Part shown: positions 12,672 through 25,946 of the stretch, piece after piece
Numbering within the stretch: position 1 is the stretch's first letter
Layout of the letters: every line of letters begins with the position of its first letter
NCBI GenBank assembly: GCA_947169885.1
Contig: CAMVRM010000005.1
Coordinates: 26,327-90,326 of the forward strand
DNA from: an uncultured Ruminococcus sp.
Lineage (GTDB): Bacteria > Bacillota > Clostridia > Oscillospirales > Ruminococcaceae
Length of the DNA: 64,000 nt
Reading direction: 5' to 3'
The notes under the pieces: generated by a model
What the model saw: the letters and a program-made list of their open reading frames with translations, nothing else
Database searches by the model: none
What the model was told of the DNA's origin: nothing
Program-made: the position numbers and the translations under genes

Positions 12672-14225
12672 ATGGCGGAATCGAGTTCGTCGAATGCAGT
12701 AAATCAGCCTATAAATCAGCAGCAGGGCGATGAAATAAACCTTGTGATGCTGCTCCACGACTGTGTGAGGGGTGCTAAGAAATATTTCTGGCTGCTCATC
12801 ATTCTCTGCATTGTGACAGTTGTTGGGTTTGTTGCGTTCACATATTACACATATGTTCCTATGTATTCCAGCAAGGCATCATTCACTGTTTCTGCAACTG
12901 ACGGCGGCTACAACACAAACTTCAACTACAACCAGCAGTATGCAACACAAATGGCGGCTACCTTTCCTTATATAATAGAAAGCGAGCTGCTTACCGACCT
13001 TGTAAAAAAAGAACTCAATATAACAAGGATAAACGGCACTATCAGTGCAAGCGCTATCGAAAATTCAAACCTCTTTACCATGATGGTGGTGAGCGATGAC
13101 CCCGATGACGCTTACAATATCCTTATCGCTGTCATCAACAACTATCCCGAAGTCATGGATTATGTTATGGGTGACACCGAACTTGCGATAATCGAAAATG
13201 CTGTTCACACCGATGTGCCCTACAATCCTTACAGCTTCAAGAAAAACGGATTCTACGGCTTTGCGATAGGTTTCCTTATCTGGGCTTTCATCGTTGTTAT
13301 CTATGCTGTACGCAGAAGGACAATAAGAACTGAGGAGGAAGTAAAACAGGTGCTGGGCGTTCAGAGCCTTGGTGCTGTTCCTCTTACTATCCACAAAAAG
13401 CGTGCCAGCAAAAAGAACCACAAGCTTTCTATCACCAGTACTAAGGACGATAAGTTCAGTGAGTCTATACGAAGCATCGCCATGAGACTTGCTAAGGAAA
13501 TGCAGGAAAAAGATATGAAGATACTCACCTGCACCTCCTGTCAGACGGGCGAGGGTGTCAGCATCGTTGCATCGAACATCGCCTCCGCACTCGCTGAGAT
13601 GAACAAGAAGGTTCTGCTCATCGAGACTGAGCCTGAAACCGAATACGCAAAGTTCGACCTCGAAAAACTGCTTTCGGGCAAATGCTCATTTGAAGAAGCA
13701 GTCGGCTATGACAAGAACAGCAGACTTTATATCACGTCTACACCCAACGGTCTTTCCAACGCAAAATACAACGCTACGGCACTTTCGCTGGGCAAGTTCC
13801 TCAACAGCATGGCTGAAAGAGTCGACTACATCATCATCGATGCTCCTGCCTGCTCGTTCATGAGCGAAACTGCCGTTGCTATCCAGTACTCCGAACTTGC
13901 AATGCTCGTTGTAAAGCAGGACAGCACCGATGTCAGAACGATCATGGAATCTATCGAGAGCATCTGCGGCTTTGAGATCGACTTCGCAGGTGTTGTGCTA
14001 AACGGAACTCAGAGCGGTATCGGCGGCTACGGCTACGGCAAATACGGCGGATACTACTACGGTTCGAGATACTCTTATTACAGAAAGGGTTACGGTTACG
14101 GCGGTTATGGCTATGGTTACGGTTATGGTTACGGCTATGGTTATGGCTACGGCTACGGCGCAAGATCCGATGAGGAACACGAAAAGGTAAGGCGCAGCAG
14201 AACGGAGCGTCCCACCGATGACTGA
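12672..14225 (+). CDS. Wzz (chain-length determinant) domain fused to a BY-kinase-like domain with degenerate P-loop and Tyr/Gly-rich tail
   Basis: Two TM helices flank a Wzz-like loop. The P-loop position reads 'SCQTGEGVS' (no Lys) and the A' position reads 'LLIETEPE'. Walker B is 'DYIIIDAPA'. The C-terminal tail 'GGYGYGKYGGYYYGSRYSYYRKGYGYGGYGYGYGYGYGYGYGYGYG' is very Tyr-rich. Confidence 0.8.
   Translation: MAESSSSNAVNQPINQQQGDEINLVMLLHDCVRGAKKYFWLLIILCIVTVVGFVAFTYYTYVPMYSSKASFTVSATDGGYNTNFNYNQQYATQMAATFPYIIESELLTDLVKKELNITRINGTISASAIENSNLFTMMVVSDDPDDAYNILIAVINNYPEVMDYVMGDTELAIIENAVHTDVPYNPYSFKKNGFYGFAIGFLIWAFIVVIYAVRRRTIRTEEEVKQVLGVQSLGAVPLTIHKKRASKKNHKLSITSTKDDKFSESIRSIAMRLAKEMQEKDMKILTCTSCQTGEGVSIVASNIASALAEMNKKVLLIETEPETEYAKFDLEKLLSGKCSFEEAVGYDKNSRLYITSTPNGLSNAKYNATALSLGKFLNSMAERVDYIIIDAPACSFMSETAVAIQYSELAMLVVKQDSTDVRTIMESIESICGFEIDFAGVVLNGTQSGIGGYGYGKYGGYYYGSRYSYYRKGYGYGGYGYGYGYGYGYGYGYGYGARSDEEHEKVRRSRTERPTDD
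14017..14160 (+). repeat. coding Gly-Tyr repeat tract (BY-kinase-like tail)
   Basis: GGY/TAY codon alternation with mixed synonymous codons (ggt/ggc, tac/tat). Confidence 0.9.
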
Positions 14226-18693: not shown

Positions 18694-18731
18694 ATGTATT
18701 GTTGCGGCTTTTTTTATGTATTGTTGCGGCT
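18689..18731. repeat. perfect 21-nt tandem duplication (period 22) spanning the stop codon of the GTPase-NYN gene
   Basis: TTTTTATGTATTGTTGCGGCT occurs at 18689-18709 and 18711-18731. Confidence 0.9.
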
Positions 18732-21272
18732 GATAATGTCGGAGATAGACGCTTCGGCAGATTCGACTTCGGCTTTCAGCTCGCTTGCGGACATTCTGAG
18801 CGCACCTGTCCGCATTATCGACATCTGCACAAGCCCGTCACTGCTTGCGACTTTTATGCGCTTTTTTGTGCGGTTCTCACTGCAATAGCTTTCGATAAAC
18901 GCATCGCTCGTCTGCCCGGAAGCCGTGTAGATGACTTCTATCGCTTCGGCACGTATCTTTTGCGGCGTGACAGCAGGAGTTTTGTAAGCATCGAAAACCA
19001 GCATCAGGTCAAGCCCCTTGAAACCTGCGTAATTGCTGAGAATATCCGCAAGCTTTCCGCAGGCAGAGTCGATGTTCACGCTTGCAAGACTGCGCAGTTC
19101 TTCCCACGCAAATACGATGTTATAACCGTCCACAAGCAGAAGTCGCGGACGTGTATCGGGCTTTGACTTTGCCGCCTGACGCTTTTTTATCTCGGCGGCT
19201 TCACGGTTGCGCTCCTCGTCATTGTTCGTGATAACACGCTTTGGAGCAATTTTCTGCATGATACGTTCCAGTTCGTCCTCGCCCAAAGAATAAGCACGCC
19301 GCTCGTGCGGTTCAGCTGCCCTGCCCTTGACAAGCGTTGAGGACAGGTGCATTTTTTCGTCCGCCTCTGCCCAGTTCACAACATCTCCCGAACCGTGCGA
19401 ACAGAACACCGAATCGGCAGTGTTCGCAAGGTCAGCTTCTGCATCATAGCCGCACTCTGCAATGACCTCATCAGCGTTCCGACATGGCGCATAGCCTGCA
19501 TTTTCAAGCGAAAGACTGCCGTGTCCCTTTGTGAAAGCCGCTACTTCCGAGGAATAACTGCGGAGCTTTGCGGCAGGCGCTTTTCCACTGATAACGCTCA
19601 TTCCGCTCTCCTCTTCGGGCTGTGACATCTCCGCACCCATGAAGTCAAGATCGCTCATCGCACGTCCAAGCTGTTCGGTCGGAACGGTCAGCCGAAAACT
19701 GAAATACGGCTCGAGCAGAACTGACTTCCCTTTCATCAGCCCCTGCCTGACCGCCCTCCACGCCGCTTCACGAAAATCGCCGCCCTCGGTGTGCTTCGGG
19801 TGGGCACGTCCTGCCGAGAGTGTTATCTTCATGTCGGTTATCGGACTGCCCGTCAGCACGCCGATATGCTCTTTCGACTTCAAAGACGAGATTATCAGGT
19901 TCTGCCAGTTTCGGTCGAGAAGATCTTCGCTCACCGCCGTGTCAAAAACGATACCGCTTCCCTGCGGCAAAGGCGACAGGATCAGATGAACTTCTGCGTA
20001 ATGGCGGAGCGGCTCAAAGTGTCCGCAGCCCTCCACAGGCTCGGCGATCGTTTCCTTGTACATGATGCGCCCCTCGCCGACAGTTATTTCCAGCCCGAAA
20101 CGGCGCTTCATCTCAGACTTGATGATCTCCGTCTGCATCTCGCCCATAAGCCCGAGAGTTATCTCGCCCAGCCGTTCGTTAAAGCCGACCTCGAGCGCAG
20201 GGTCTTCCTCACGCAGTTCATACAGCTTTGACAGAAGCGTGAAATTATCCGTACCTGACGGCGGATAAACGGCACAGCTTATGACAGGGCGAAGTTTTCC
20301 GCTCAGACTGTCGGTGCGGCTGCCCAAGCCCTGCCCTGCGTAAGTCGAAGTCAGCCCCAGCAGCGACACCACATCGCCTTGTTCCGCCTTATCGACCTCG
20401 GTGAACTTTCCGCCGCTGTAAATGCGGATGCGTGCAAGCTTTTCCTCAATGGGTACGCCCGAAGCCCCACGGTATTTCAGCGTCTGGCGCACTTTCAGCG
20501 AACCGCCCGTCAGCTTGACACAGGTCATGCGCTTGCCGTCAGCGTCACGCTCGATCTTGAACACCCGTGCGGAAAATTCCTCCTGCGGCGGCTGAGGCTT
20601 GATGTAGCAGTCAAGCGCCGAAAGCAGTTCGGAAACGCCCTGATCTTTGAGCGCCGCTCCGAAATACATCGGAAAAAGTTCACGCCCCATGACAGCCCTG
20701 CTGAGTTCTGCGGCGGTGAGTGTGCCGTTTTTGTCATAGCTTTCGATAAGGCTGTCAGAACAGAACGCAGCCGCTTCTATACGCTCGTCATCGGGAAGTG
20801 TAAAGTCGCACAGCTTGTCAGACAGGCGGCGGTGAAGCTGTTTTATAAGCGTCTGCTTGTCAAAGCCCGCAAGATCGGTCTTATTTACGAAAACGAGAGT
20901 AGGGACTTTTTTCGCTTTGAGCAGTTTCCACAGCAGTTCAGTGTGAGCCGCAGCGCCGTCAGCTGCACTCACCAGCAGTACTGCCGCATCGAGTATCGAG
21001 ACTGCCCTTTCCGCTTCGGCGGCAAAGTCAGCGTGTCCCGGGGTGTCGACAAGATAAAAATGGGTATTTCCGAAATCAAAGACCGCCTGTTTCGAGAATA
21101 TCGTGATACCACGCTGTTTTTCAAGCTCGTGAGTGTCGAGGAACGCATCGCCGGTGTCCACACGTCCACGCTTTCTCACAGCACCCGACAGATACAAAAT
21201 GCTCTCGGACAAGGTAGTTTTTCCTGCGTCAACATCGGCGAAAATGCCGATCGTCAGCTTTTTATTATCCAT
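18714..21272 (-). CDS. EF-G/TetM-like translational GTPase fused to C-terminal YacP/Rae1-type NYN domain
   Basis: G1 'ADVDAGKTT', 'RGITI', G3 'DTPGHADF', G4 'NKTD'. About 650 aa are colinear with 5-domain trGTPases. The C-terminal 143 aa 'LLVDGYN...VFDAYK...TSDAFIE...ASSDG...GALRMSASEL' match YacP/Rae1. Confidence 0.8.
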   Translation of the reverse strand: MDNKKLTIGIFADVDAGKTTLSESILYLSGAVRKRGRVDTGDAFLDTHELEKQRGITIFSKQAVFDFGNTHFYLVDTPGHADFAAEAERAVSILDAAVLLVSAADGAAAHTELLWKLLKAKKVPTLVFVNKTDLAGFDKQTLIKQLHRRLSDKLCDFTLPDDERIEAAAFCSDSLIESYDKNGTLTAAELSRAVMGRELFPMYFGAALKDQGVSELLSALDCYIKPQPPQEEFSARVFKIERDADGKRMTCVKLTGGSLKVRQTLKYRGASGVPIEEKLARIRIYSGGKFTEVDKAEQGDVVSLLGLTSTYAGQGLGSRTDSLSGKLRPVISCAVYPPSGTDNFTLLSKLYELREEDPALEVGFNERLGEITLGLMGEMQTEIIKSEMKRRFGLEITVGEGRIMYKETIAEPVEGCGHFEPLRHYAEVHLILSPLPQGSGIVFDTAVSEDLLDRNWQNLIISSLKSKEHIGVLTGSPITDMKITLSAGRAHPKHTEGGDFREAAWRAVRQGLMKGKSVLLEPYFSFRLTVPTEQLGRAMSDLDFMGAEMSQPEEESGMSVISGKAPAAKLRSYSSEVAAFTKGHGSLSLENAGYAPCRNADEVIAECGYDAEADLANTADSVFCSHGSGDVVNWAEADEKMHLSSTLVKGRAAEPHERRAYSLGEDELERIMQKIAPKRVITNNDEERNREAAEIKKRQAAKSKPDTRPRLLLVDGYNIVFAWEELRSLASVNIDSACGKLADILSNYAGFKGLDLMLVFDAYKTPAVTPQKIRAEAIEVIYTASGQTSDAFIESYCSENRTKKRIKVASSDGLVQMSIMRTGALRMSASELKAEVESAEASISDIISRNNT
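18717..19145 (-). other. segment encoding the NYN (YacP/Rae1-like) domain of the GTPase fusion
   Basis: Codons for RLLLVDGYN (from 19145) through the stop. There is no stop or frameshift between it and the GTPase part. Confidence 0.7.
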
Positions 21273-21479
21273 AAACGTTCATCACACTCCAACAGGTAAG
21301 ATTTGCGAAAATTTGTACGAAACAAGCATCTCATACGAAATACCATTGTCATTTACGCTAATGTGCGAAATGTTTCGTTAAAAATATGAAGGAATTGTAT
21401 ATTGCGTACATTGTAAAATTATAGAAATTGTGCAGTTATACAAATATTTTGTTAAATACACAATATATCTCCGTCAGAC

Positions 21480-21508
21480 TTGACAAATAAAGATAATTGT
21501 AGTATAAT
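21480..21508 (+). promoter_or_regulatory. consensus sigma-A promoter (TTGACA-17-TATAAT) for the pilin-like gene
   Basis: TTGACA at 21480-21485 and TATAAT at 21503-21508. Confidence 0.65.
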
Positions 21509-21596
21509 AAATACATAAGATGAAGAAAATATTAGGAAAGTCAAAGGCTGGTTACGAAATTTAAGGAAAATAATTGAATAGAAAGAAGGATTGGTT

Positions 21597-22319
21597 ATGA
21601 AAAAAATTAACAAGAACCTTAAAGGTTTTACTCTTATAGAACTGGTCGTTGTTATCTCAATAATAGGAGTGTTGGCGGCGATCATCGTTCCGTCTATATT
21701 GAATTACGTTCACAAAGCTTGCCGTGCTTCCGACAAGGTGACTGCAAGGCTCATCGGAACAACAGTCATGAATCTTATGGCTGAAAGCCCTGATTTTGAG
21801 GACAACTTCTACAACGCTGACACGATGCTCTGGACTGTCACCATTGACGGCGAGACTTATAAATTCAGAAACGTTGCCCGTGCGGACGGCTCGAAAAACT
21901 GCTACGGCAGCGACCACAACGAAAACAGAAACAATCACAAGCAGTCGGGGCGTGGCTGGGAATTCACTTCCGCTAAGGATGCTAATGTTAAAGTCACTGA
22001 CACGCTCAACACCCGTCTTTATGATGTTATCGGCGGCGATGTTGACAACATGAGTTTTATACCCATGAGGAGTTCGGGATATAAGCACCCGTACAAAGAC
22101 TGCAACCACGATAAGGGCTATACCAACTCCAACAAAAGGGGCAATGAACGAAATAGCTCTCCCACATACAGCTATACCGACAAGTGGATCGTCGGCTACA
22201 ACGCAGGCAAAGACGGCAAGGAAAAAGGTCAGGTCGAAGTCTGGGCAGGCGATTCCTACGGCAAGGGAACTAACGGTCCGAGAGTTCGTCTGTGGCCTGC
22301 TCCCCCCTCTTATTACTAA
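21597..22319 (+). CDS. prepilin-type N-terminal cleavage/methylation domain protein (type IV pilin/pseudopilin-like), orphan
   Basis: 'KG|FTLIELVVVISIIGVLAAIIVPS' class-III signal. ATG at 21597 has a GAAGGA RBS. No pilus assembly genes nearby. Confidence 0.8.
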   Translation: MKKINKNLKGFTLIELVVVISIIGVLAAIIVPSILNYVHKACRASDKVTARLIGTTVMNLMAESPDFEDNFYNADTMLWTVTIDGETYKFRNVARADGSKNCYGSDHNENRNNHKQSGRGWEFTSAKDANVKVTDTLNTRLYDVIGGDVDNMSFIPMRSSGYKHPYKDCNHDKGYTNSNKRGNERNSSPTYSYTDKWIVGYNAGKDGKEKGQVEVWAGDSYGKGTNGPRVRLWPAPPSYY

Positions 22320-23558: not shown

Positions 23559-24704
23559 ATGACAAAGATCACAATTTTTTCGGGCTTTCTTGGCGCAGGC
23601 AAGACCACACTTATCAAGAAACTCATTGCTGACGGCTACAACGGTGAAAAGCTTGTCCTCATCGAAAATGAGTTCGGACAGATAGGCATTGACGGCGGTT
23701 TCTTGCAGGACGCAGGCGTTGAGATAACCGAAATGAACTCAGGCTGCATCTGCTGCTCGCTGGTAGGCGATTTTGGCAAGGCACTCGTTAAGGTTCTTGA
23801 CGAATACGCTCCCGACCGCATACTTATCGAACCTTCGGGCGTTGGCAAGCTGTCGGACGTTATCCGTGCAGTTCAGGACATCGGTACTGACAAGGCTGTT
23901 CTTGACGGCTTCACGACCGTTGTCGATGCTAAAAAGTGCAAGATGTATCAGAAAAACTTCGGTGAGTTCTTCAACAACCAGATAACCTATGCAAGCTGCC
24001 TTATCCTCAGCCACACCGCAGGACTTTCTCAGGCAAAGCTTGATGACTGCGTTGAGAGACTTCGTGCGCTCAACCCTGCCGCTCCTATCGTTACTACCGA
24101 TTGGGATCAGCTGACAGGCAAGCAGCTCACCGATGCTATGACACAGAAAAATACTCTTGATGATGAACTCAAAGAGCTTCTCGCCGAGGCTGAGCATGAG
24201 CATGAGCATCATCACCACCACGACCACGATGATGACGAGCATGAGCATGAGCATCATCATCACCATGACGATGACGAGCATGAACATGAGCATCACCACC
24301 ATGACCATGACGATGACGAGCATGAGCATGAACATCATCACCACCACGATCACGACCATGACCACGGTGAAGGCTGCACCTGCGGCTGCCACGATCATGA
24401 CCACGATCATCACCACCACCACGCAGACGAAGTATTCACAAGCTGGGGCATCGAGACTGCTCGCAAGTACACCAAAGAAGAGATCGAGACTATCCTCGGT
24501 GAGCTGGAATCGGAATCGACTTACGGCTATGTTCTCCGTGCAAAGGGCATCGTTGAGGGCAAGAACGGCGAGTGGATACACTTTGACTATGTTCCCGGTG
24601 TGCCCGATGTCCGCACAGGCTCGGCTTCGACTATCGGCAGACTGTGCGTTATCGGCTCGCAGCTGAAAGAGGACGCTGTTGCCGCACTTTTCGCAAAGGA
24701 ATGA
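23559..24704 (+). CDS. COG0523/CobW-family metallochaperone GTPase with internal His/Asp-rich repeat
   Basis: 'GFLGAGKTTLI', CxCC motif 'SGCICCSL', and a His-rich stretch of about 80 aa made of (DDDEHEHEHHHH)n. Confidence 0.85.
   Translation: MTKITIFSGFLGAGKTTLIKKLIADGYNGEKLVLIENEFGQIGIDGGFLQDAGVEITEMNSGCICCSLVGDFGKALVKVLDEYAPDRILIEPSGVGKLSDVIRAVQDIGTDKAVLDGFTTVVDAKKCKMYQKNFGEFFNNQITYASCLILSHTAGLSQAKLDDCVERLRALNPAAPIVTTDWDQLTGKQLTDAMTQKNTLDDELKELLAEAEHEHEHHHHHDHDDDEHEHEHHHHHDDDEHEHEHHHHDHDDDEHEHEHHHHHDHDHDHGEGCTCGCHDHDHDHHHHHADEVFTSWGIETARKYTKEEIETILGELESESTYGYVLRAKGIVEGKNGEWIHFDYVPGVPDVRTGSASTIGRLCVIGSQLKEDAVAALFAKE
24190..24430 (+). repeat. in-frame coding tandem repeat (GAGCATGAGCATGAGCATCATCAC... 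units of ~39-45 nt) encoding the His/Asp-rich tract
   Basis: Four successive DDDEHEHEHHHH-type units lie inside the CobW-family gene. Confidence 0.85.
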
Positions 24705-24995: not shown

Positions 24996-25946
24996 TTGGA
25001 AGAAAACAATATCGCAGTCTACCTGTTTCTGGGATTTCTTGAAGCAGGAAAAACTCAGTTCATACAAAAGACTATCTGCGAGGGCAGTTTCAACAACGGT
25101 CAGCGGACGGTGCTGATCGTCTGTGAAGAAGGTATCGAGGAATACGATGAAGAAGCGCTCGCAAAGGCTAACTGCGTTGTCCGCACTATCGAGGATAAGT
25201 CGGAGATGACTTCCGATAATCTTGAAAAATTCCTTGTTGAGACAGGCGCAGACAGAGTTGTTATCGAGTATAACGGTATGTGGCTGGTAAACGAGCTGTT
25301 TGAAGCGCTTCCCGATGACTGGATGATCTATCAGATACTGAATTTTGTCGATGCGACAACTTTCCTCAACTACAATCAGAATATGCGCAGTCTTGTTGTC
25401 GACAAGCTTAATATGTGCGAACTGGTAGTTTTCAACCGTGTGGACAAGAACACTATGGACACAATGGAGTTCCACAAGATAGTCCGTGGTGTGAGCAGGC
25501 GCACTCAGATAGCATATGAATACACTGACGGAACGGGCGGATATGACGACATCGAAGACCCTCTGCCGTTTGATGTTGAAGCTGACCATATCTATGTTGA
25601 GGATCGTGACTATGCGCTCTGGTACAGGGACATCGGCGAAGAACCGAAGAAGTATGACGGCAAACTCATAACCCTTAAAGCGGCGGCGCTGGGCAATCCA
25701 AAGTTCCCGAAAGGCGTTATCGCTCTCGGACGGCAGATAATGACCTGCTGTGTTGAGGATATTCAGTTCTGCTGGTACGTGACACTTTGCGACCAGCCCA
25801 TGACCGATCAGCCCCAGTGGTTCAACGCAACTTTCGAGGTGGCGTACAAGTGGCACAAGATGTACCGCAAGAAAGGTCCTGTGCTGACCGTCAAGAGCCT
25901 TGAACCCTGTGAACCGCCCGAACAGCAAGTCGCAACATTCTACTAA
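24996..25946 (+). CDS. CobW-like GTP-binding protein paralogue lacking the CxCC motif
   Basis: TTG start 7 nt after AGGAGTGG. P-loop 'GFLEAGKTQFI'. No CxCC motif at the equivalent position. Confidence 0.7.
   Translation: MEENNIAVYLFLGFLEAGKTQFIQKTICEGSFNNGQRTVLIVCEEGIEEYDEEALAKANCVVRTIEDKSEMTSDNLEKFLVETGADRVVIEYNGMWLVNELFEALPDDWMIYQILNFVDATTFLNYNQNMRSLVVDKLNMCELVVFNRVDKNTMDTMEFHKIVRGVSRRTQIAYEYTDGTGGYDDIEDPLPFDVEADHIYVEDRDYALWYRDIGEEPKKYDGKLITLKAAALGNPKFPKGVIALGRQIMTCCVEDIQFCWYVTLCDQPMTDQPQWFNATFEVAYKWHKMYRKKGPVLTVKSLEPCEPPEQQVATFY

Follow-up and report, generated by a model that had tools for sequence, protein, structure and literature searches.

A translational GTPase fused to a Rae1-type NYN nuclease domain in Clostridia, a candidate tethered mRNA cleavage factor for stalled ribosomes

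Proteins in which a Tet-type translational GTPase is fused to an NYN_YacP nuclease domain were reported in Clostridiales by Atkinson 2015 (BMC Genomics 16:78; PMC4342817) and Matelska 2017 (NAR 45:6995; PMC5499597). A gene with the same architecture and from the same taxon, one more member of this group, was found at positions 18714..21272 (minus strand) of a 64,000 nt stretch of DNA from an uncultured Ruminococcus sp. (GenBank assembly GCA_947169885.1, contig CAMVRM010000005.1, positions 26,327 to 90,326), referred to below as the window. We propose, with a probability of about 0.5, that the encoded protein is a GTP-gated factor in which a tethered Rae1-type nuclease cleaves mRNA on stalled ribosomes. 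The two earlier reports give the fusion one or two sentences each, cover about ten species and include no experiments. They propose roles in tetracycline resistance or as a ribosomal RNA (rRNA) RNase, and rRNA-RNase activity of the fusion proteins was named as testable (PMC4342817). The novelty implied by the original prediction, which had been made from the letters of the window, was therefore overstated. Its remark that no protein of this kind had been characterised agrees with the literature, in which no experimental study of a GTPase-NYN fusion was found, and when other names of the GTPase clade were searched for in the literature, only TET-dioxygenase noise came back. What is added to the earlier reports is the scale of at least 575 species, conservation at the level of single residues, signatures in domain IV and in a module that follows domain V, a set of unfused relatives, and the failure of the curated resistance-family cut-offs.

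The stand-alone form of the nuclease, Rae1/YacP, is typically encoded in a cysS-mrnC-yacO-yacP operon, and NYN_YacP was first tied to rRNA and transfer RNA (tRNA) processing by its gene neighbourhood with mrnC, yacO and cysS (PMC5499597). Rae1 acts on stalled and collided ribosomes, to which it binds transiently (PMC12407103; PMC13622287). Its cut has been mapped to the exit side of the stalled ribosome (PMC12407103), and a September 2026 preprint reports that the collision-induced rise in transfer-messenger RNA (tmRNA) tagging depends on Rae1 (PMC13622287). As the association is transient, there is no structure of ribosome-bound Rae1 (PMC13622287), and two recent Rae1 papers, PMC13622287 being one of them, do not mention the GTPase fusion. 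The original prediction took Rae1 to cut in the ribosomal A site, a premise that is outdated and has been withdrawn by the same laboratory that had put it forward, the current placement of Rae1 being the trailing edge of ribosomes that have stalled or collided. The argument that the GTPase reaches the A site and the nuclease cuts there therefore does not follow.

Domain architecture and conservation

The gene is one unbroken open reading frame (ORF) of 852 codons with an ATG start in the ORF listing of the window, as originally claimed, and its stop codon is at 18714-16. An in-frame TGA was read directly in the sequence three codons 5' of the ATG at 21272, which is therefore the sole possible start. 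Pfam matches above the gathering cut-offs were obtained for GTP_EFTU (residues 6-225, E = 5.7e-47), EF-G_D2, EFG_III, EFG_IV, EFG_C and NYN_YacP (residues 712-850, E = 1.6e-38; 132.7 bits, cut-off 24.6). The NYN part was also found to align with the crystal structure of Bacillus subtilis YacP/Rae1 (5MQ8/5MQ9) over Rae1 residues 3-136 (E = 4.6e-18). An AlphaFold2 model built on 120 homologues, with a mean predicted local distance difference test score (pLDDT) of 87 and a predicted template modelling score of 0.65, predicts a five-domain EF-G-type body, a small extra module, a low-confidence segment at residues 646-709 and a confident NYN domain, the linker being the only part of low confidence. 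When this model was used in a Foldseek search, EF-G and TetM, on and off the ribosome, were retrieved with E values of ~1e-54, and none of the matched structures carried an added nuclease on the EF-G/TetM fold.

All domains are encoded on the minus strand. The G domain (residues 1-228; 20589..21272) includes the GTP_EFTU match and the motifs G1 AxVDAGKT[TS], G2 RGIT, G3 DTPGH and G4 [NTS]KxD, and is followed by the domain II beta-barrel (residues 229-325; 20298..20588; EF-G_D2 232-314), which is all-beta in the model with a pLDDT of ~90. Domain III (residues 326-400; 20073..20297; EFG_III 329-399) leads into domain IV (residues 401-516; 19725..20072; EFG_IV 401-515), and domain V (residues 517-598; 19479..19724; EFG_C 518-599) completes the EF-G-type body. 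Next comes the post-domain-V module (residues 599-645; 19338..19478), to which no Pfam family matched and which is modelled at pLDDT 82-93 as a helix, a beta-hairpin carrying SVFCxHGxG and a second helix. A flexible charged linker (residues 646-709; 19146..19337; pLDDT 47-63) then connects to the NYN_YacP (Rae1-type) endoribonuclease domain (residues 710-852; 18717..19145).

Most of the anatomy first read from the window survived this analysis. The quoted motifs were all found (ADVDAGKTT, RGITI, DTPGHADF, NKTD, LLLVDGYN, VFDAY, TSDAFIE, SSDG and GALRMS), the domain families expected from Pfam were recovered together with EF-G_D2, the resemblance to Rae1/YacP was borne out by the Pfam and crystal-structure matches, and the K/E/R-rich linker was located at ~646-709. 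The assignment of residues 1 to ~650 to a five-domain body held for its domains and motifs but not for its extent, as the five domains stop at ~598 and the extra module occupies 599-645.

Conservation was assessed in a set of 88 sequences, made up of the query and 87 full-length representatives 36-63% identical to it. The GTPase motifs were almost completely retained, with GK[TS] in 88/88, RGIT in 87-88/88, DTPGH, which includes the catalytic His80, in 87/88, and xKxD in 88/88 (K131 and D133, each 88/88). In the NYN domain, D715, D761, D790 and D812, which correspond to Rae1 D7, D53, D81 and D104 in the 5MQ8/5MQ9 alignment, were each present in 88/88, so that the acidic residues pointed out in the original prediction are conserved in diverse representatives. 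The Rae1 D7N D81N double mutant is the published catalytic mutant, in which activity is abolished (PMC10351889). Judged from these residues, both halves of the fusion look catalytically intact.

Conservation was highest in domain IV, where the mean frequency of the top residue was 0.68 and 21% of columns were at least 95% identical (15% in the G domain), and the corresponding mean frequencies were 0.58 in the G domain, 0.57 in NYN and 0.26 in the linker. The linker is rich in E, K and R, has no conserved column and varies in length from 58 to 190 aa across the family (median 84). Conserved domains separated by an unconserved linker of variable length form the pattern of two functional modules on a flexible leash.

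Three near-invariant signatures characterise the family. In domain IV, loop I (GHFEPLRHYAE in the query, residues 417-427; 19992..20024) has the family signature GH[FY]EPLRHYAE, with H418, E420, P421, L422, H424 and E427 all 88/88. Loop III (GRAHPKHTEGGDFR, residues 488-501; 19770..19811), which replaces the YSPVS tip of TetM, has the signature HxKHTEGGDFR at residues 491-501, with H494 and D499 in 88/88. The third is SVFCxHGxG in the post-domain-V module, where S621 and F623 were found in 88/88, C624 in 79/88 and H626 in 76/88. The Cys/His set of this region consists of C597 (followed by H598), C624, H626 and H642, which could form a putative metal site; the 120 close homologues all have C597, C624 and H626.

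The possibility of a chimeric junction, raised in the original prediction, was settled in favour of a genuine fusion. The GC content runs smoothly across the GTPase/NYN junction, and among 83 related loci, which come from independent assemblies, cultured isolates included, 77 have one ORF that spans the query from the first 20 residues to past residue 830. The remaining 6 are cut by contig ends or interrupted. The 120 best database homologues (47-100% identity, 842-944 aa) all have the EF-G domains and PF05991 together. An assembly or frameshift artefact was thus ruled out for the window gene.

In certain fusion copies from metagenomes and metagenome-assembled genomes (L101, L107, L115, L138, L147; L068), NYN is out of frame with the GTPase part. 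Such copies may owe their frameshift to sequencing or assembly, or may be genuine cases of pseudogenisation or splitting.

A GTPase clade with fused and unfused members

The GTPase part belongs to the translational GTPase superfamily, having G1-G4, the catalytic His of DxxGH, domains II-V and the EF2-family body plan. Compared at full length with solved structures, it was closest to TetM/TetO (281 bits; EF-G, 252 bits), and its best NCBIfam model was tet_protect, yet with a score of 425.7 bits, far from the curated cut-off of 775. The TetM/W/O/S model gave 313 (cut-off 1100) and a further Tet model 278 (cut-off 1420), and the EF-G models TIGR00484 / NF009381 were likewise below cut-off (280 against 659.4 and 320 against 583), leading to the rejection of an identity as elongation factor G. 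Homologues that NCBI names as TetM family fell equally short, and all members scored (the window protein, P0014, P0017, P0040 and P0096) were far under both the Tet and the EF-G cut-offs.

At the tip of domain IV, AGRAHPKHTEGGDF in the query aligned to YGLYYSPVSTPADF in TetM, with HPKHT in place of YSPVS. The TetM loop III tip YSPVS (Pro509) reportedly dislodges tetracycline, according to Donhofer 2012 and Arenz 2015. Domain IV alone was closer to EF-G than to TetM (46.9 bits vs 34.5), and H491 aligned with the EF-G loop histidine. Membership of the tetracycline-protection family was rejected on sequence and distribution, as the scores lie below the cut-offs, the YSPVS tip is absent and the distribution is not mobile and patchy.

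Relatives without the nuclease were recovered when metagenome contigs were scanned for the back-translated HFEPLRHYAE motif alone, independently of NYN. Of the 120 loci obtained, 82 continue into NYN within one ORF, 14 are cut off by the contig end and 24 reach a stop without NYN. Five of these 24 are frameshifted fusions, and at least 12 have no NYN anywhere in the 1.2-7 kb downstream. The proportion fused in one ORF is therefore 82/106 assessable metagenome loci with the domain IV motif, with 5 more fused but frameshifted. From their likely starts the unfused proteins are ~640-660 aa long, share 39-47% identity with query residues 3-643, and end just past the post-domain-V module, which forms their C-terminus (L168, L211, L212).

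In a homology search, the unfused form was found in the Lactobacillaceae, in Limosilactobacillus reuteri and oris, Secundilactobacillus, Pediococcus, Companilactobacillus and Furfurilactobacillus. Loop I and the post-domain-V module are kept in 116-117/117 of this set, each of the 11 positions of loop I being conserved in at least 116/117, and part of loop III differs. An operon check in the Lactobacillaceae found no NYN gene adjoining the unfused GTPase. It is also carried by megaplasmids of Ligilactobacillus salivarius, and 33 Ligilactobacillus matches among plasmid records proved to be the post-domain-V module of the unfused GTPase and not a stand-alone NYN. On L. salivarius pMP118, the unfused GTPase gene is divergent from rpsN, encoding an S14 paralogue, and from a gene for a 'putative metal homeostasis protein', neighbours of zinc type (L211, 4241-4637).

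A further unfused protein, of 658 aa, is encoded in Subdoligranulum variabile, a member of the Oscillospiraceae (OY725836.1; L212, 2768-4744). It has domain IV loops of the fused type and ends ...MHIQLK directly after the post-domain-V module, which suggests that the nuclease was lost, or never acquired, inside a clade dominated by the fusion.

As the GTPase with its post-domain-V module exists unfused, it forms a clade of its own, to which the linker and NYN are a modular addition that predominates in Clostridia. By its sequence the GTPase part is a distinct clade, first described here, that is set apart by a near-invariant domain IV tip and the extra module, and the unfused clade in Lactobacillaceae and Subdoligranulum is a new observation. 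In databases the proteins are variously named 'TetM/TetW/TetO/TetS family tetracycline resistance ribosomal protection protein', 'elongation factor G', 'GTP-binding protein', 'translation factor GTPase family protein' and 'NYN domain-containing protein' (records P0040, P0017, P0096, LSL_RS10690 on NC_007930.1, P0274 and P0357). Given how far every scored member falls short of the curated cut-offs, use of the Tet and EF-G names looks like over-annotation. Many members, fused and unfused, bear the Tet name, which can inflate resistome counts.

Distribution, inheritance and genomic neighbourhood

A scan of one genome per species gave at least 600 matches, of which 575 were confirmed, and the fusion is accordingly encoded by at least 575 species-representative genomes. 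The best 80 of the at least 600 matches are almost all from Clostridia (Oscillospiraceae, Ruminococcaceae, Lachnospiraceae, Acutalibacteraceae and Peptostreptococcaceae) and include Intestinimonas butyriciproducens, Flavonifractor hominis and [Clostridium] polysaccharolyticum, a survey of the kind the original prediction had called for. The closest named homologues are from Oscillospiraceae. A query made of the linker and NYN (residues 596-852) retrieved ~219 clusters at 50% identity (E <= 1e-30), and in the best 150 of these the match always fell at the C-terminal end of a long protein or of a fragment of one.

In the protein tree, the nearest neighbour carried the same order label in 48/52 cases, a figure as high as which was reached in 0/2000 permutations. 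As the tree tracks taxonomy, the fusion gene is vertically inherited, and it is chromosomal. Only two of 72,556 plasmid records carry the fusion, both of them non-mobilizable and 250-520 kb in size, which ruled out a plasmid-borne resistance gene. The fusion is also present in two human-faeces scaffolds recorded as 'UNVERIFIED: Bacteriophage sp.', L087 (MT835563.1) and L088 (MT835514.1). The one examined has cellular metabolic genes, for an NAD(P)H-hydrate dehydratase and a citrate transporter, as well as one for a peptidoglycan-binding protein, and has the look of bacterial chromosome recovered in a virome sample. A phage-borne fusion was rejected on these grounds.

In the window, the fusion gene stands alone on its strand, between a capsule-synthesis cluster with a response-regulator/GGDEF gene on one side and a pilin-like gene on the other, and no second, stand-alone NYN gene was found. 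The neighbourhoods of the homologues consist of variable, ordinary genes, and when all ORFs of the 83 loci were clustered no general conserved neighbour was found. The lone recurrent neighbour, absent from the window, is a YlmH_RBD gene directly downstream in 8/79 loci, with an overlap of 13 nt. This gene encodes ~247 aa (L001, 10609-11352), its start overlapping the stop of the fusion gene, and it also occurs in L010, L019, L021, L038, L061, L081 and L084, apparently all of one Oscillospiraceae lineage. YlmH is a ribosome-associated quality control (RQC) factor (PMC13622287). The fusion matched no PADLOC-DB model, and a known anti-phage defence system was rejected in view of this, of the ordinary and variable neighbours and of the lack of a defence-island context.

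Upstream of the start codon, a GGAG at 21287..21290 (minus strand) was read directly as a possible ribosome-binding site, a weak one because the spacing of 14 nt to the ATG is long. A weak promoter-like site, TTAACA-17-CACAAT (21427..21455, minus strand), matches the consensus at only 9/12 positions and lies in an AT-rich intergenic region. The 5' leader had no Rfam match and folded no better than shuffled sequence (z = -0.24), and a structured regulatory leader was rejected for these reasons. The AT-rich region is shared with the divergent pilin-like N_methyl gene (21591-22319), which is preceded on the plus strand by a perfect 12/12 sigma-70 consensus promoter, TTGACA-17-TATAAT (21480-21508).

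Two CobW/COG0523-type GTPases are encoded at 23559-24704 and 24996-25946, 2.3-3.7 kb from the fusion gene, and one of them has a long His/Asp/Glu-rich insert, HEHEHHHHHDHDDDEH. These too are neighbours of zinc type, as on L. salivarius pMP118, but a link of this kind is not general across the 83 loci. The gene at 12672-14225 of the window encodes a capsule-type chain-length/tyrosine-kinase-like protein (AAA_31/ParA-type ATPase) that ends in an unusually long Gly-Tyr repeat, GYGYGGYGYGYGYGYGYGYGYGYG, which is an expanded version of the BY-kinase C-terminal tyrosine cluster.

Proposed mechanism, alternatives and known systems

As a cleavage factor for stalled ribosomes, the fusion would work as follows. 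The GTP form of the GTPase would dock on a stalled or collided ribosome at its factor-binding site, where domain IV would probe the A site/decoding centre and thereby select the ribosomal state. In EF-G and TetM, domain IV is the part that reaches the decoding centre. Docking would keep the tethered NYN domain at a high local concentration near the mRNA, whether on the entry side of the 30S subunit or between two collided ribosomes, and NYN would cut the mRNA in the manner of Rae1. GTP hydrolysis would then free the factor, and the truncated mRNA would enter tmRNA-type rescue. From polymer scaling, a disordered tether of 58-190 residues has, as a rough estimate, a typical reach of ~50-100 Å, and more when stretched, and this would suffice to get to the mRNA entry side of the 30S subunit on the bound ribosome. 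In favour of this mechanism, all domains score above their Pfam cut-offs, EF-G and TetM are the best solved relatives in both sequence and fold, and the GTPase motifs and the four NYN aspartates are conserved. Domain IV is the best conserved part of the protein and the linker the least, as expected of two functional modules on a leash. With a ribosome-docking module built in, a Rae1-type nuclease that otherwise binds transiently would gain a means of recognition. The gene for a YlmH_RBD protein that overlaps the fusion gene in one Oscillospiraceae lineage also speaks for it, YlmH being an RQC factor. The gene itself is housekeeping-like, with its wide occurrence, vertical inheritance and ordinary, variable flanks.

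Several points weigh against this proposal. Ribosome binding, an mRNA substrate, the stalled or collided ribosome as trigger and GTP gating are all features that we infer. The factor-binding site is on the A-site/entry side, whereas the Rae1 cut is on the exit side, and the model therefore needs either binding to the trailing ribosome of a collided pair or a cut site unlike that of Rae1. In such a pair the trailing ribosome meets, with its entry side, the exit side of the stalled one, and a factor bound to the trailing ribosome would therefore have its NYN at the reported Rae1 cut position, although this reconciliation is speculative. Across the 83 loci, rescue genes, those of tmRNA and RQC included, showed no general operon association with the fusion, and the link to YlmH is confined to one lineage. 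The existence of the unfused clade means that the GTPase has a job of its own, which need not concern stalled ribosomes.

This last point bears on two other explanations. The docked GTPase might direct NYN to rRNA or tRNA, leading to ribosome inactivation or turnover, or to subunit maturation or quality control. For the maturation variant, a comparison is offered by the PIN nuclease Nob1, whose cleavage of pre-18S rRNA is stimulated by the GTPase eIF5B. The original neighbourhood link of NYN_YacP to mrnC, yacO and cysS (PMC5499597) fits this explanation, the tether would reach rRNA elements near the factor site, and an unfused GTPase allows a role unrelated to mRNA. It is nevertheless unlikely, as Rae1, the sole characterised YacP-family enzyme, cuts mRNA in a way that depends on translation, the fused NYN keeps the active-site residues of Rae1 and is closely similar to it, and neither the window nor the 83 loci have neighbouring rRNA processing genes. 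Alternatively, the GTPase may act autonomously, in rescue, ribosome splitting or metal or nutrient limitation, with NYN as an uncoupled add-on that serves co-expression or co-localisation. The unfused orthologues, which keep the loop I signature and the post-domain-V module, and the unconserved linker would agree with this, but at least 575 species have kept the fusion, its active site intact, which argues for selection on the physical linkage, and it predominates among the assessable metagenome loci even before the 5 frameshifted fusions are counted. An uncoupled nuclease is thus considered quite unlikely.

That the protein protects ribosomes from tetracycline or another antibiotic, with the nuclease as an accessory, was raised in both earlier reports (PMC5499597; PMC4342817) and would suit the top ranking of TetM/TetO among solved relatives and of tet_protect among NCBIfam models. 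Such a role is improbable given that all curated cut-offs are missed, also by homologues bearing the TetM name, that YSPVS is replaced by HPKHT in a domain IV nearer to that of EF-G, and that inheritance is vertical and chromosomal in hundreds of species of Clostridia, with only the two large non-mobilizable plasmid records. There is very little to be expected from a toxin-like or abortive-infection factor, in which the nuclease would be released on ribosomes during phage infection or stress to halt translation globally. It has been speculated that Rae1 or SmrB could act on ribosome-stalling mRNAs of invaders (PMC13622287), and the fusion does occur in the two 'Bacteriophage sp.' records; these are, however, virome scaffolds flagged as unverified, and the content of one indicates bacterial DNA, and the gene has housekeeping flanks rather than defence islands, no conserved neighbouring immunity, antitoxin or sensor gene, no PADLOC match and a vertical mode of inheritance. 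The antibiotic-response and abortive-infection roles suggested by the original prediction accordingly find no support, its A-site geometry does not follow, and what remains of its ribosome-targeted GTPase-nuclease is the architecture, the catalytic residues and the general idea.

A wider version of the proposal, which is possible though doubtful, is that the GTPase clade senses stalled or collided ribosomes and recruits or gates Rae1-type nucleases in a pathway that has not been recognised, the two being linked covalently in Clostridia and the sensor possibly acting in trans where the nuclease is separate, for example in Lactobacillaceae. The occurrence of the same GTPase clade unfused makes a GTPase-Rae1 partnership a testable prediction. 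If true, this pathway would amount to a GTPase-gated bacterial no-go decay, with a logic like that of Hbs1-Dom34 and Cue2, and would explain how Rae1-type enzymes find the ribosome. In either version, the fusion offers a handle on how Rae1-type nucleases recognise stalled or collided ribosomes, and its GTPase, which could be trapped with GDPNP or by mutation of the catalytic His, provides a direct route to a ribosome-bound structure and to the geometry of the cut site. The family is carried by hundreds of abundant gut Clostridia, including Faecalibacterium, Roseburia, Agathobacter, Ruminococcus, Flavonifractor and Intestinimonas, and is a major translation factor of gut bacteria that awaits characterisation.

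Among known systems, TetM/TetO share with the fusion a five-domain body that is colinear over residues 5-597. They end in a short C-terminal helix, whereas the fusion continues into the post-domain-V module, linker and NYN, and they are found on mobile elements, unlike the chromosomal, vertically inherited fusion. EF-G shares the fold, the G motifs, the best domain IV score and the loop histidine at H491, but the fusion has a shorter G' insertion and a loop I that is reduced by 4 residues and has a different, invariant sequence, and its gene is located outside the str operon. With B. subtilis Rae1, the fusion shares the NYN_YacP fold and sequence and all four active-site aspartates. Rae1 is, however, a free protein of 170 aa, whereas the NYN of the fusion is covalently tethered to a GTPase, matches positions 1-141 of the 166 in the Pfam model without the last ~25, and is encoded outside the cysS-mrnC-yacO operon context, among unrelated neighbours.

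SmrB of Escherichia coli and Cue2 of yeast follow the same proposed logic, whereby stalled or collided ribosomes receive a nuclease that cuts the mRNA, and are then rescued, although their SMR fold is unrelated to the NYN fold. Hbs1-Dom34 are GTPase-guided factors of no-go decay. None of SmrB, Cue2 and Hbs1-Dom34 unites a translational GTPase and a nuclease in one polypeptide, as the fusion does.

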